Below are positions 24,522 to 57,778 of a stretch of DNA of 64,000 nt, in pieces; position 1 is the first letter of the stretch, and every line of letters begins with the position of its first letter. The stretch lies in contig JAWACY010000001.1 in NCBI GenBank assembly GCA_038896535.1, positions 262,488 to 326,487 of the forward strand, read 5' to 3'. The DNA is from Candidatus Anstonellales archaeon (lineage in GTDB: Archaea > Micrarchaeota > Micrarchaeia > Anstonellales > J096). Made by a program: the position numbers and the translations under genes. The notes under the pieces were generated by a model that was not told the DNA's origin, made no database searches, and saw only the letters and a list, made by a program, of their open reading frames with translations.

Positions 24522-24845
24522 TAGTAAGAAGGCAAATTGACTTATACACACGCCTTCTTACAATCTTCCAGGTAAGAAGGCAATGCCCTTATACACATGC
24601 CTTCTTACAATCATCCAACCACTATTATTCCCTTTGGTAAGAAGGCAATGCCCTTATACACACGCCTTCTTACAATCTTCCAACCGCTATTATTCCCTTT
24701 GGTAAGAAGGCGCTAACCCTATTAAACACGCCTTCTTACAAACATCCCACCCCTATTATAAGCTTGTTGAAGAAGGCAAATTGACTTATACACACGCCTT
24801 CTTACAATTATCTGGCCACTATTATAAGCTTGTTGGATGTTTTTG
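24522..24845. repeat. tandem array A: five units of about 65 bp, each a 10-bp-stem hairpin GTAAGAAGGC-(17-18 nt)-GCCTTCTTAC plus a conserved about 28-nt spacer
   Basis: Units at about 24524-24561, 24572-24608, 24637-24673, 24702-24739 and 24768-24805. Spacers such as AATCTTCCAACCGCTATTATTCCCTTTG. Begins 1 nt after tRNA-Ile. Confidence 0.85.
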
Positions 24846-24871
24846 GTTTTGTGCTATTTAGCTCTGATAAG

Positions 24872-26233
24872 TTAGGAGTTTTTTGTTTTTTTATCGAAAT
24901 ATGAAGTAAATCTTATTATATCATCTTCCCCTAAATAGCTACCAGTTTGCACCTCTATCATCTCTATTTTATCTTTAAATGGGTTTTCTATTTTATGAAT
25001 TGTTTTCTTTGGAACATAAGCACTTTGATTTTCTTTTAATATTAATGTTTTTTTGCCTATAGTAATTTTAGCCTTTCCTTTTACGATAATCCAATGTTCA
25101 GCCCTATGCATATGCTTTTGCAAAGATAAAGATTTTTTTGGCAATACTTCAATTCTTTTTACTTTATAACCTATGCCTTGATCAAGTATTGTATAACTAC
25201 CCCAAGGCCTATAAACAGTTTCTGGTTCATTGACAAGCTGTTTATTTTTTTGTTTCATCAGCTCAACAAGCTCCCTTATATTGTTTGTCTCATTTATATT
25301 TGATATTAAGATAAAATCACCAGAATTAATAACGCACAAGTTTTTAACTCCAATAAGTGCAGCAGGCTTTTTTGATATTAAAAGATTGCCATTTGCATTT
25401 ATTGTTATTGCTTCCCCTATTATAGCATTTTCTCCATTTTTGAATAGCTCATAAATACTCCGGAAATTCCCGACATCACTCCAATCAAATTTTGCTGGCA
25501 TTAGAATAGCATTTTTTGTTTTTTCTATTAATGCATAATCAACAGATATTGGGGCTATGTGCTTATACAGTTTTTCAATGTCATTCAATTGTTCTTTTTT
25601 TATCCCAGCATGTTTTATTGCTTCATTTATAAATAATGATTTTTTAAACATGAACATTCCGCTGTTCCAAAATGCCCCTCTTTTTATTAATGAACCAGCA
25701 GTTTTTTTATCTGGTTTTTCTATAAATTTTTTTATCTTGTAAAAATAGCTATTTATTTTCTCATTCTCCGGCATTATGTAGCCATATTCGCTACTAGGGT
25801 TTTTTGGTTTTATGCCAAAACAGACTATGTTGTTTTTTGCAATGCCATTTGCTTGTTTCAATTGCTCTGTTAAAGTTTTTGTATCACTTATATAATGATC
25901 AGATGGCATGACAATAACGTTCTCATTATCATCAATGTTCATCAACCCAAGCAAAATAGCGGGGAATGTGTTTTTTTGTTCTGGTTCAATGATAACGTTT
26001 GACATGTTAAAATCTTTACATATTTCATTTATCTGTGCCTTTGCTAGTAACTCTTGCTCTTTGTTTGTTATTATCAATACATTAGATTTTCTCATGAGCA
26101 TCAATGCCCTTTTCAATGTAAGCTGGAGAAGTGAAAGGCCATTAAAGAGCTTGATGAATTGCTTTGGCATTATTGTCCTGCTCAAAGGAAAAAGTCTTGT
26201 CCCGCTCCCGCCAGCCAATATTATTGAGTGCAT
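24872..26233 (-). CDS. bifunctional mannose-1-phosphate guanylyltransferase / mannose-6-phosphate isomerase (cupin C-terminus)
   Basis: ILAGGSGTRLFPLS nucleotidyltransferase N-terminus and a C-terminal cupin domain. 453 aa. Confidence 0.85.
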   Translation of the reverse strand: MHSIILAGGSGTRLFPLSRTIMPKQFIKLFNGLSLLQLTLKRALMLMRKSNVLIITNKEQELLAKAQINEICKDFNMSNVIIEPEQKNTFPAILLGLMNIDDNENVIVMPSDHYISDTKTLTEQLKQANGIAKNNIVCFGIKPKNPSSEYGYIMPENEKINSYFYKIKKFIEKPDKKTAGSLIKRGAFWNSGMFMFKKSLFINEAIKHAGIKKEQLNDIEKLYKHIAPISVDYALIEKTKNAILMPAKFDWSDVGNFRSIYELFKNGENAIIGEAITINANGNLLISKKPAALIGVKNLCVINSGDFILISNINETNNIRELVELMKQKNKQLVNEPETVYRPWGSYTILDQGIGYKVKRIEVLPKKSLSLQKHMHRAEHWIIVKGKAKITIGKKTLILKENQSAYVPKKTIHKIENPFKDKIEMIEVQTGSYLGEDDIIRFTSYFDKKTKNS

Positions 26234-26280
26234 AAAAAATTTTTAAGAAAAGATTAAAAAAGAGAATCATAAGTTTTTTT

Positions 26281-54956: not shown

Positions 54957-55577
54957 TTATTCAAGCCTTACAGCAATTGTTAATCTATAAACCCTTTTTC
55001 CCTGTTTTGCAGTATGTAGTTTTCTTGATAATTTATAATTTTTTATACCAATGTTCGTTATTAAATTTAATAAAGCTTTAGAGCTTCCAACATATATGTT
55101 TATGCCCTCTTTAATTTCTTCTATTTTTGATATGAATGTATGCCTTTTAAGCATTTTTATTATCATATTCGCAAATTGCTCTTGCTTTTCCTTTTCGCCC
55201 CTTATTTGCAATATGCCCTCATAATAACTTCCCTTCTTCTTTAAACATTCATGGCATGTTACATAATTAAAATTAATGTTTATTGGCATTGTGTATTCAA
55301 AGTCCCCTTTTTCTCCTTCTATAACAATTATGGCCTCTTTGTTATTTATATCAACATATGCCTCTTTGAAATTACCTTTTATTTTTTTCGCTATCAAGCT
55401 TTCGAGCCCATTTATTGTGAGTTGCTGCCATTTGTTATTAATGAAATATTTTCCGCAATTCTTGCACTGTTTTATATCAATAGATTTTGGCATTTTTACT
55501 TCTGGGACATAACAAGAAGTGCAAAAAAGCCCAATTTCAGTTTCTTTTCCGCATTTAATACATTTTTCCATAAGCAA
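54957..55577 (-). CDS. NMD3-family ribosome biogenesis/export adaptor-like protein (short archaeal form)
   Basis: CIKCGKET...LCTSCY then CKNCGKY....W, two treble-clef Zn motifs arranged as in the NMD3 N-terminus. Confidence 0.5.
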
Positions 55578-57525
55578 GCTTCCTCAAAAGGTTATTTTTT
55601 TCTTTAGAATCTTTCAATATGATTTTTAATACATCTTTTATATTATGTGCTGCATGTACTTTTATTTTTTTCTTTAATTTCTCACTCAAATCTTTTAAGT
55701 TGCTCGCAGGTATTATAAGTTCTTTTGCACCTATTTCTATTGCTGCCTCTGCTTTAGCATTAATGCCACCAACAGGTAAAACATTGCCCCTAACATCCAG
55801 AGAACCAGTTAATGCAACATCCTGCTTTATTGGCACTTGAGTAAAAGCAGATAATACTGCAACAGCAACGCTCACACTTGCTGAATCGCCCTCTACTCCT
55901 TCATATGTTTGCAAAAATTGAACATGTATATCTTTTTTTACTATACTTGTTCCTATGTATTTTTTTATTATTGCAGAAACATTTTGCACAGCTTCTTTTG
56001 CGATTGACCCAAGTTTTCCAGTTGCTATTATTCTTCCTTCAACTTCGCTGGCTGATGGCGTTACTTCAGCAACAATTGGAAGTGCAATGCCTTTATTCGT
56101 GTTTCCAATAACAGCAAGGCCATTTGCTCTTCCTACTTCATAACCTTTTGTGTATATTACCTGATATTCCTTTTTTCTCTTTACATACTCATCAGCTATT
56201 TGTGCTTCAACTGCTTTTGCTGCGCTCCTTGCTTTTATGACATGCTCTTTTTCAACATATTTGCTGCCTTCTTTTACAGCAATGTCTCCAGCAGCTCTTA
56301 CAAGGCCCCCAAGTTCTCTTAAATTAAGGCTTAACCTTCCTTTTCTGCCTGCCATTAACCTCGCTTGTTCTATTATTTCAAGCACAGCATCTCTTGTGAA
56401 ATGCGGGATCTTGCCATCTTTTTTTACTTCCTGCGCTACAAACCTAGCAAGCTTCTCCCAGTTTTCTTTATTATCATCCATGTCTGTTTCCATAAAAACC
56501 TCATATCCATTGCCTCTTATTCTGCTTCTCAATGCCGGATGTAAAGCCCTTAAATCCATTTCATTACCAGCAGCAACAAGTATGAAATCACAAGGTGCTG
56601 GTTGCGTTTTTACTAATGCTCCAGAACTCATTTCACTCTGTCCGGTTATGCTATATTGCTTCTCTTGCATTGCTGTTAAAAGTTCTTGTTGCCAATTAAG
56701 CTTTAAAGATGCTATTTCGTCAATAAAAAGCACACCCTTATGTGCTTTATGTATTGCTCCTGCTTCAACTCTTAAATGTGCTGGCGTTCCTAGCCCACCA
56801 CTTTGCAAAGGATCATGTTTAACATCCCCCAATAATGCCCCTGCCTTTGCTCCAGTCGCATCTATGAACGGCGCTTGTTTTTTGCCAGTGTTGTCAACAA
56901 TGAGCTTTGGCTTTATTGTTTCAAATTGCATTGGCCTGGCACTGCTCAATAGAGAGTAAAATAAGTAAAGTAAGCCAAACGCAAACAACGCTGATAATAA
57001 AAACCATCTAGCATTATTATCTATGTTAAAGAAAAATAGCCCGACACCTATTAAAAAAAGCAATAATAAAATAAGTCCAGTAGGTAAGCCCTGTTTTTTA
57101 TCCTGCCTTTGTGAAGATGCTTTTATTATCCTTCTACCAAGGCCTTCCTGTAAAATGTCAGGTAATTCATCTTTTTTATGTATTAATATTTTTCCTATTT
57201 CATCTTTTGTATATGCTTGGAAAAGCTCTGGATTTTTAATTAAATATTCCCTATCTGGATATGTTTTAACGCTTTTTATGATAGGCTCATTTTCCATAAT
57301 ATTGTTTGGATATGCCAGCAAATCCTCAAGCTCTGTTTTTGGTAATAACTCTGCCATTCCTTGTGCCAGCATACTTTTTCCTGTTCCAGGAGGCCCTATT
57401 AAAAGCACATGCCTTCTTTGCTTTGCTGCTAATTTTATTATCTCAACTGCTCTTTCTTGTCCTATAACTTGATCTATTATTTTTGAGGGCACTTCTATTT
57501 CTTCTGTTGTTTTGAATTTCAGCAT
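55555..57525 (-). CDS. lonB: archaeal membrane-bound Lon protease LonB
   Basis: AAA+ Walker A GPPGTGKS interrupted by two TM helices, and a C-terminal Lon protease domain with the Ser-Lys dyad region. Confidence 0.9.
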
Positions 57526-57583
57526 ATAATAAATTTTCTATAAATTATTTTTTAAACTTACTGCATTGTACATATAAGATAAG

Positions 57584-57778
57584 GTTAGCTCCTTCTTCAC
57601 AAAGTTAATAATAGGGGCTGGATGTTTGTAAGAAGGCGCACATATAAGGGCATTGCCTTCTTACCTGGAAGATTGTAAGAAGGCATGTATATAAGCCAAT
57701 TTGCCTTCTTCCCACAGGTAATAATAGGGGCGGGATGTTTGTAAGAAGGCGCGTATAATAGGGTTAGCGCCTTCTTAC
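57584..57778. repeat. tandem array B: inverted copy of the hairpin-repeat family (three full units plus one degenerate unit)
   Basis: Units at about 57628-57664, 57675-57712 and 57741-57778 (GTAAGAAGGC...GCCTTCTTAC). The reverse complement matches the unit/spacer order of array A, including the short spacer AATCTTCCAG. Confidence 0.85.

Follow-up and report, generated by a model that had tools for sequence, protein, structure and literature searches.

Tandem arrays of a palindromic hairpin repeat at two intergenic sites of a Candidatus Anstonellales genome

Introduction

Archaea of the DPANN group have very small, tightly packed genomes, and noncoding arrays of 200 to 320 bp stand out in such a compact genome. 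Two arrays of this size lie in a 64,000-nucleotide (nt) stretch of contig JAWACY010000001.1 (here called the window), which belongs to a metagenome-assembled genome (MAG) of Candidatus Anstonellales (Micrarchaeota, DPANN). Both are built of hairpin-forming units in tandem; array A lies directly behind a tRNA-Ile gene, and array B lies in the opposite orientation at the other end of a 33-kb interval, next to lonB. What kind of element are these arrays, and does their inverted arrangement give the interval between them a meaning of its own? The analysis described here confirms that both arrays exist and places them, as a lineage-restricted variant, within a known element type, the short palindromic intergenic repeat cluster. 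Our tentative first choice among the explanations is a lineage-specific, selfish or neutral palindromic repeat that resembles the repetitive extragenic palindromes (REPs) and bacterial interspersed mosaic elements (BIMEs) and is probably transcribed passively.

Two arrays are built from one hairpin family

Both regions were read directly, and both arrays were found almost to the base where the initial annotation had placed them. Array A consists of five head-to-tail units on the + strand (24524-24839), and its first hairpin begins 2 nt past the 3' end of tRNA-Ile(GAT) as delimited by ARAGORN and Rfam; the reported abutment on the tRNA gene is thus correct, with an offset of 2 nt in place of 1 nt. 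Array B consists of three full units and a decayed fourth (57573-57778) in reverse orientation. All units carry the arms GTAAGAAGGC and GCCTTCTTAC, and the hairpins measure 37 to 38 nt. The family had been described as having a perfect 10-bp stem and a loop of 17 to 18 nt; the repeat stands, with stems of 10 to 12 bp, loops of 14 to 18 nt, and two 5' arms altered at one or two positions (units A5 and B2). Coordinates of the units and of their neighbors are collected in Table 1.

Table 1. Window coordinates of the hairpin units and neighboring features (CM, covariance model)
Feature	Position	Strand	Basis and remarks
Solitary hairpin	9410..9450		CAAAGAAGGCA-N19-TGCCTTCTTTG; 9-bp core arms of the family, unrelated loop; CM 13.7 bits; 0.00 expected by chance
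tRNA-Ile(GAT)	24448..24521	+	ARAGORN; Rfam tRNA, 68.4 bits
Unit A1, loop a	24524..24571	+	Hairpin 24524-24561, short 10-nt spacer AATCTTCCAG; CM 54.7 bits
Unit A2, loop b	24572..24636	+	Hairpin 24572-24608, 28-nt spacer; CM 90 bits
Unit A3, loop b	24637..24701	+	Hairpin 24637-24673; 95% identity to A2; CM 76.8 bits
Unit A4, loop c	24702..24767	+	Hairpin 24702-24739, 28-nt spacer; CM 81.2 bits
Unit A5, loop a	24768..24839	+	5' arm TGAAGAAGGC; hairpin 24768-24805, 34-nt spacer-like tail; CM 68.6 bits
T5 and T4 runs	24840..24850	+	First oligo-T downstream of tRNA-Ile
manC-type mannose-1-phosphate guanylyltransferase/isomerase gene	24872..26233	-	Pfam; with array A, separates tRNA-Ile from corA
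lonB	55555..57525	-	Pfam domains; flanks array B
Decayed unit B4	57560..57599	-	c-like 5' arm TGAAGAAGGA (57590-57599) and loop start kept, 3' arm lost; runs into lonB promoter region
Unit B3, loop b	57600..57664	-	Hairpin 57628-57664, 28-nt spacer; CM 86.5 bits
Unit B2, loop a	57665..57712	-	5' arm GGAAGAAGGC; hairpin 57675-57712, then short 10-nt spacer; CM 50.9 bits
Unit B1, loop c	57713..57778	-	Hairpin 57741-57778, 12-bp stem, 28-nt spacer; CM 80.6 bits
Major facilitator superfamily (MFS) transporter gene	57800..58936	+	Pfam MFS_1; likely start ATG 57815; other flank of array B

The loops fall into three types. Type a (AAATTGRCTTATAYACAY) is followed by a short spacer, and types b (AATGCCCTTATA...) and c (GCTAACCCTATTAWAC...) are followed by a long one. 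Loop order in array A is a-b-b-c-a, with spacers of 10, 28, 28, and 28 nt and a spacer-like tail after the last hairpin; the reverse complement of array B reads c-a-b-c', which is the same cyclic order. A search for inverted repeat arms aligned A1-A2 with B2-B3 (132 nt, 85% identity) and A4-A5 with B1-B2 (108 nt, 89%), and the longest perfect identity between the arrays is ∼30 to 40 nt. Because the loop order is shared and whole blocks can be aligned, multiunit blocks were copied rather than single hairpins being inserted independently. Both loci thus contain a higher-order a-b-c module of ∼180 nt, and the earlier view of one repeat family in two opposite orientations was borne out.

The units are strictly head to tail, with periods of 47 and 65 to 66 in Tandem Repeats Finder. 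Loops and spacers alike contain repeated occurrences, all in direct orientation, of a pyrimidine-rich motif, CC(C)TATTAT or CCTTATA; the spacers share a CC(C)CTATTAT motif, are ∼70 to 95% homologous to one another, and are also similar to the c-type loop. Every arm is half of the same palindrome and can therefore also pair with its other neighbor, across the spacer. The 5' end of a unit is GTAAG, itself paired with CTTAC, and the bases next to the stem but outside it are not constant (TA, AG, TG, or GG). The arrays have a G+C content of 40 to 43%, versus ∼31% for the window.

With a 65- to 66-bp period and a ∼37-nt, partly palindromic repeat followed by a spacer of ∼28 nt, the arrays could be miscalled by a repeat finder as clustered regularly interspaced short palindromic repeats (CRISPR). 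The initial annotation rejected this assignment, and rightly so: the spacers are mutually homologous, whereas CRISPR spacers are unique, one spacer class is only 10 nt long, and the window contains neither cas genes nor a leader.

The arms are almost invariant, and the units fold stably

In the window, GTAAGAAGGC with at most one mismatch occurs 19 times, versus 3.6 ± 2.0 times in shuffled sequence, and the pattern AAGAAGGC-N8-30-GCCTTCTT occurs nine times, versus 0.00. A covariance model (CM R1) was built from the eight units and run without filters. It recovered exactly eight units in 64 kb, scoring 50 to 90 bits in the sense and 16 to 23 bits in the antisense orientation, and nothing else scored well.

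Counterpart units of arrays A and B differ at 1 of 60 arm positions, versus 10 of 53 loop and 12 of 67 spacer positions (together 22/120, 18%; Fisher P = 0.0008). Eight core pairs are invariant in all units, without any compensatory change. This invariance means that something reads the sequence of the arms or their pairing. No covariation was found among the units; as the stems never vary, this is uninformative for or against an RNA structure. The earlier proposal that the units be folded gave stable hairpins for both nucleic acids: as DNA, the hairpins fold at −7.4 to −12.5 kcal/mol (z scores of −5 to −6.6), and as RNA, the whole arrays have z scores of −6.9 and −4.6.

Both arrays lack T≥4 runs on either strand; the window averages 19.5 T≥4 runs and 10.2 A≥4 runs per kb. 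The other three tRNA genes in the window have T4 to T5 within 1 to 14 nt. Archaeal RNA polymerase terminates at oligo-T, and the T5/T4 runs just past array A (Table 1) are likely to be the termination signal. Given this mode of termination and the lack of oligo-T, we infer that array A is read through passively from the tRNA-Ile promoter and probably belongs to the 3' trailer of tRNA-Ile. The inference is weakened by the tRNA-Ile gene of an array-free relative (JGI 3300044959; see below), which likewise has no nearby T-run.

Both arrays lie between genes. Array A separates the 3' ends of tRNA-Ile and the convergent manC gene. Array B occupies the divergent region between lonB and the MFS gene, as had been annotated, and the A-rich TATA-like elements that adjoin the lonB and MFS starts, judged by eye against the tRNA promoters, are untouched by it. 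No gene is called over the hairpins in two annotated MAGs. A coding repeat was considered and rejected: an 80-amino-acid open reading frame (ORF) over array B (57597-57839) is open by chance, and the corresponding frames of array A carry stops.

The arrays are absent from the nearest relatives

In a second strain, GCA_038896675.1 (99.7% identity), both loci carry the arrays between unchanged neighbors, in the junction orders MFS gene-array B-lonB and manC-array A-tRNA-Ile-dinB, and no inversion is seen. Of three short-read assemblies of the species, two (GCA_038891655.1; Logan SRR27730028) break off within array B; the repeat thus fragments these assemblies.

The nearest sampled relative, JGI 3300044959 (84% identity in LonB and 58% in DinB), has neither array. 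Its left locus reads dinB, tRNA-Ile, 45 nt, corA, also without manC (L105 353-466), and only 43 bp lie upstream of lonB. Relatives with 81% and 69% LonB identity have no array upstream of lonB either, and the covariance model found no unit in 83 kb from three relatives or in ∼17 kb of same-genome DNA past both ends of the window. The initial annotation had suggested searching the genome and its relatives for further units. Within the window itself, it had missed one doubtful solitary hairpin (9410-9450). Because both loci of the nearest relative lack the arrays, both arrays are lineage-specific gains, and each occupies precisely a point at which relatives disagree in gene order, that is, a synteny breakpoint. 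Relative to JGI 3300044959, manC and array A together are inserted between tRNA-Ile and corA (24522-26280). The order and orientation from tRNA-Ile to corA at the left end are the same as in that relative, and this retained ancestral order argues against an inversion there.

The 33-kb interval contains the genes for ribosomal proteins L1/L10/P1, ribonucleotide reductase, RsmB, and PAC2, a type II restriction-modification pair, and three tRNA genes. The window as a whole additionally holds an A-type ATPase operon, genes for eIF2-alpha, RpoE, the thermosome, and ribosomal proteins S13/S4/S11 and L16, and a fourth tRNA gene. Among the ∼57 window ORFs screened against Pfam, there was no transposase (including Y1_Tnp of the Y1/HUH type), integrase, recombinase, Cas protein, or Orc1/Cdc6, and cumulative GC skew is monotonic across the window, without an inflection. 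Because the interval carries core genes and neither a transposase nor an integrase was found, it is not an island; interval and window alike are core chromosome. The notion that the arrays bracket a meaningful 33-kb unit, as the initial annotation had it, is not supported, and a prophage, composite transposon, or mobile island with the arrays as its ends was rejected for the same reason.

Searches for related hairpins elsewhere

The solitary hairpin at 9410-9450 has an 11-bp stem with the core arms AAGAAGGCA/TGCCTTCTT. Part of it coincides with the end of a 14-codon, lysine-rich ORF; a second hairpin with a T7 run, followed by TTTT, comes next. The hairpin is a possible relative of the array family, with uncertain membership. 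The compact stretch around it (9352-9500), in a 568-bp gap, is unannotated and resembles a transcription unit; it reads in order: a TTTATATAA box, GGTGA, the 14-codon ORF MAAKKKAKKAAKRR (9391-9435), the core-arm hairpin, 14 bp in this reading, a GGGGC...GCCCC hairpin with T7, and TTTT. Rfam gave no match for this stretch, which could be a gene for a tiny basic peptide or for a small RNA (sRNA).

In JGI 3300044959 (L101 13461-13672), five or six short palindromes with 10- to 12-bp stems and 3-nt loops lie between convergent genes. One example is TAACCTTCTTT-AGA-AAAGAAGGTTA, in which the core CCTTCTT/AAGAAGG is common to the window's family. The arms of these palindromes change in a compensatory way (AACCTTCTTT/AAAGAAGGTT, GAACTTTCTT/AAGAAAGTTC, and GAAACTTCTTT/AAAGAAGTTTC). 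The common core hints at a clade-wide recognition sequence and is offered as a lead only: in the relative with 69% LonB identity (L103 16703-16730), GTAAGAAGGC-AGCGCC-GCCTTCTT occurs inside a methyltransferase coding region, where it arises from codons for KEGG...AFLL, and purine runs of the lysine-codon kind thus easily give such chance matches.

A search for the exact hairpin in 185,579 species-representative genomes gave no archaeal match; the source genome itself was not among the matches (absent or masked), so that nothing can be concluded from this search about copy number. The same scan returned 45 single hairpins from unrelated bacteria, mostly GC extended and terminator-like. Among metagenome and viral contigs, the exact hairpin matched only chance singletons and a plant repeat. 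The latter comprises four contigs (Ga0123342/Ga0123341) with tandem hairpins built on the stem GTAAGAAGGCG, in whose loops a CCTTATA motif occurs; the contigs are nearly free of ORFs and carry a phloem-protein-2 (PP2) lectin gene, and the resemblance was rejected as coincidence in plant DNA. The plant hairpins (GTAAGAAGGCGAC-TTTACCTTATA-GTCGCCTTCTTAC; L049 680-860, L052 1130-1340, L054 1400-1590, and L092 7730-7900) have a period of ∼52 nt, lie in contigs of 29 to 36% G+C, and share an 11-nt arm with the archaeal family.

Three further searches were negative. The six translated frames of the arrays, compared with proteins for spurious ORFs on other copies, gave no match; array A gave no blastn match in phage and plasmid collections; and in Rfam, also at permissive thresholds, only tRNAs passed, the best array scores being 14 to 17 bits against thresholds of 51 to 105. 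Inspection by eye disposed of three more candidates: for a C/D-box sRNA, no C/D boxes were found; for tRNA-fragment (att) repeats, there is no tRNA homology beyond a 9-mer with one mismatch; and for a promoter array, the TTATAC motifs of the loops fall short, in strength, of the A-rich TATA boxes that precede the four tRNA genes.

Proposed explanation: a REP/BIME-like palindromic repeat

A hairpin with a conserved stem, subtypes with fixed linkers, tandem clusters, block duplication, permissive intergenic sites, and lineage-specific occurrence at breakpoints together fit a REP/BIME-like element best. REPs have stems of 5 to 13 bp and loops of 2 to 20 nt, are often clustered or tandemly amplified, lie mostly downstream of genes, and, as is typical of mobile DNA, are distributed in a strain- or species-specific manner (PMC3733652). 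The array hairpins, ∼37-nt palindromes, fall within these ranges of stem and loop, and they share with REPs and BIMEs the tandem clusters, the few fixed linker types, the several subtypes, the strictly intergenic position, the restriction to one lineage, and a stem that is the best-conserved part.

The building block would be the 37- to 38-nt hairpin, with the 10-nt arms as the part that is kept. Hairpin variants a, b, and c with their fixed linkers would make up the ∼180-nt module, which would have been copied in one piece to two or more intergenic sites that tolerate it, one behind tRNA-Ile and one between the divergent core promoters of lonB and the MFS gene; the arrays may later have grown or shrunk by unequal recombination or slippage. 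The arms would remain invariant either through recognition by a hairpin- or sequence-specific enzyme or binding protein or through propagation of intact-arm copies only. RNA polymerase, meeting no oligo-T within the arrays, would be expected to read through them, leaving tRNA-Ile with a 3' trailer, and manC with a 3' end, of stable hairpins. As with REPs, any influence on the stability of RNA 3' ends or on termination would be a side effect. The intervening 33 kb would be ordinary chromosome and the inverted arrangement incidental.

Several points weigh against this reading. REPs carry a conserved GTAG (or CGTC) tetranucleotide, unpaired, at one end, and REP dimers are mostly head-head or tail-tail, head-to-tail dimers being rare (PMC3733652). 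The arrays have neither tag, their GTAAG being paired, and all units of an array have the same orientation, as the sense and antisense scores show. They also differ from REPs in their archaeal (DPANN) host and in their large, semiconserved loop, and no target-site duplication was found. REPs occur in tens to thousands of copies dispersed over a genome; only the two arrays and the one doubtful solitary hairpin were seen in ∼81 kb of the source genome, and the exact hairpin was found in no other archaeal genome or metagenome contig. High copy number, the hallmark of REP-like and mobile repeats, was thus not seen, and copy number may be very low. REPINs are mobilized by REP-associated tyrosine transposases (RAYTs) of the Y1 family, and a RAYT gene is of the IS200/IS605 type and is flanked by repeats; no RAYT gene, and no other transposase or recombinase, was found among the screened ORFs. 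Finally, invariant arms would be no less compatible with a function at the level of the host, for example as protein-binding sites.

Other known elements were compared as well. In 2005, Suyama, Lathe, and Bork (FEBS Lett 579:5281; cited in PMC2229807) reportedly described MJRE1-3 of Methanocaldococcus jannaschii, with about 141 dispersed copies. By description only, the two cases share short, mostly extragenic palindromes, an AT-rich archaeal host, several subfamilies, and the lack of a known transposase, and they differ in that the MJREs are dispersed, whereas here there are two tandem arrays. Miniature inverted-repeat transposable elements (MITEs) are likewise small, noncoding, and intergenic, with inverted-repeat termini; unlike them, the arrays have no target-site duplication at their ends, a far shorter hairpin, a tandem arrangement, and no solitary full copy in the window or its flanks. 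A dispersed MITE, which the initial annotation had named as the finding that would reduce the arrays to a mobile element, was therefore not what emerged. In archaeal replication origins, origin recognition box (ORB) or mini-ORB elements closely flank an AT-rich unwinding element beside orc1/cdc6; the arrays are 32.8 kb apart, no Orc1/Cdc6 match was found in the screened ORFs, and the GC skew is monotonic. A classical REP, a MITE, a CRISPR array, a replication origin, and an Rfam RNA were each rejected.

Alternative explanations

Invariant arms also invite an explanation in terms of a DNA-binding protein, an idea already raised in the initial annotation: the arrays could be site clusters for a sequence-specific, double-stranded DNA-binding protein (a transcription factor, nucleoid protein, or partition protein) with half-sites AAGAAGGC/GCCTTCTT, array B regulating the lonB and MFS promoters. 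We consider this unlikely. In its favor, the arms are conserved in sequence and not in pairing alone, with eight invariant core pairs, no compensatory change, and 1 difference in 60 positions versus 18% elsewhere; array B sits precisely in the gap that separates two divergent core promoters; loops and spacers repeatedly contain, in direct orientation, a motif resembling CCCTATTAT; and the 9-bp core recurs in the solitary palindrome at 9410-9450, as does a CCTTCTT/AAGAAGG core in the tandem palindromes of JGI 3300044959. Short core matches are weak evidence, however, given that the same 10-mer hairpin turned up by chance in a relative's methyltransferase gene. Array A, moreover, lies between two 3' ends (tRNA-Ile and manC), with nothing obvious to regulate; the half-sites are irregularly spaced (17 to 18, 10, and 28 nt), and their center-to-center distances do not correspond to whole helical turns; the relatives with 84%, 81%, and 69% LonB identity have no such sites upstream of lonB; and no candidate regulator was found.

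No better placed is a role as a cis-acting RNA, akin to the structured tandem noncoding RNA of the initial annotation, in which tandem hairpins at the tRNA-Ile and manC 3' ends and before lonB would protect against 3' exonucleases or aid termination, or would be processed into small hairpin RNAs. Strong predicted folding agrees with such a role, as do the lack of oligo-T within the arrays and the T5/T4 runs right after array A, where the other three tRNA genes have T4 to T5 within 14 nt. The solitary hairpin has a TATA-like box and a mini-ORF on one side and a hairpin-T7 terminator on the other, and the JGI 3300044959 cluster lies between convergent genes and shows compensatory arm changes. 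In the array family itself, by contrast, there is no covariation, no Rfam family matches, and the orthologous loci of relatives do not conserve the arrays; array B precedes the likely transcripts of lonB and the MFS gene and is not contained in them; a 3' stabilizer would not need as many as five tandem copies; and the argument from a displaced terminator is weak, since the tRNA-Ile of JGI 3300044959 also has no nearby T-run.

We hold a bolder proposal to be similarly doubtful. The AAGAAGGC/GCCTTCTT arms would be the recognition site of a dedicated trans-acting protein of this Anstonellales clade, in an archaeal counterpart of the REP-RAYT system or a system with a hairpin-binding RNA or DNA factor, within a reduced DPANN genome; the arrays would be transcribed with tRNA-Ile as tandem hairpin RNAs, and the differently built JGI 3300044959 cluster and the 9410-9450 hairpin, through their common core, would be further sites of that factor.

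Least supported, and very improbable, is the inversion switch suggested by the initial annotation, in which the arrays would be substrates for homologous or site-specific recombination flipping 33 kb: inverted homology of 108 to 132 nt (85 to 89%) 32.8 kb apart and the position of both arrays at synteny breakpoints versus other Anstonellales would suit it, but the window and the independent strain GCA_038896675.1 share both junctions and thus a single orientation, the left junction keeps the ancestral order and orientation from tRNA-Ile to corA, stretches of perfect identity reach ∼30 to 40 nt at most, the window has no recombinase gene, and the segment carries core genes, with no inflection in cumulative GC skew.

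Implications

A literature search found no paper on REP-like palindromic repeat clusters in Micrarchaeota. Should further copies of the REP/BIME-like family turn up at scattered sites, in association with an enzyme specific for the hairpin, intragenomic replicators of the REP/RAYT type would be known from archaea as well, and the family would mark rearrangement hot spots in these genomes. Should only these loci exist, the strongly conserved arms would point to an undescribed binding factor. No evidence favors the more dramatic readings. In practical terms, arrays of this kind break short-read assemblies and can be miscalled as CRISPR.

Additional features of the window and its surroundings

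Inside the 33-kb interval, a gene for an N6-adenine DNA methylase overlaps, tail to tail, a gene for a Tsp45I-family restriction endonuclease, forming the type II pair (33509-35513). An in-frame, GAA/GAT-rich acidic tail (EEEDEEEW-like) at 38471-38637 ends just before tRNA-Ala. Outside the interval, a 118-amino-acid ORF at 15093-15449 has a weak, subthreshold match to TrbC/VirB2 pilin (23.1 bits versus a cutoff of 27.9). Some 4 to 10 kb past the right end of the window (L109 1-4200), adjoining a ribosomal protein cluster, lie a P-loop ATPase of the DUF87/AAA_10/TraG type, a protein with a faint HTH_17 match, and several ORFs that matched nothing in Pfam; the stretch holds no hairpin units and may be an integrated mobile element. 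In the relative with 81% LonB identity (L106 5745-5839), ARAGORN predicts a tRNA-like gene of 95 nt, whose anticodon has four bases (gcag) and which may be an intron-containing or otherwise atypical tRNA. Lastly, a 12-nt, in-frame periodic repeat is present in 10 to 12 copies at 47888-48116, inside a 598-amino-acid ORF that has no Pfam match.

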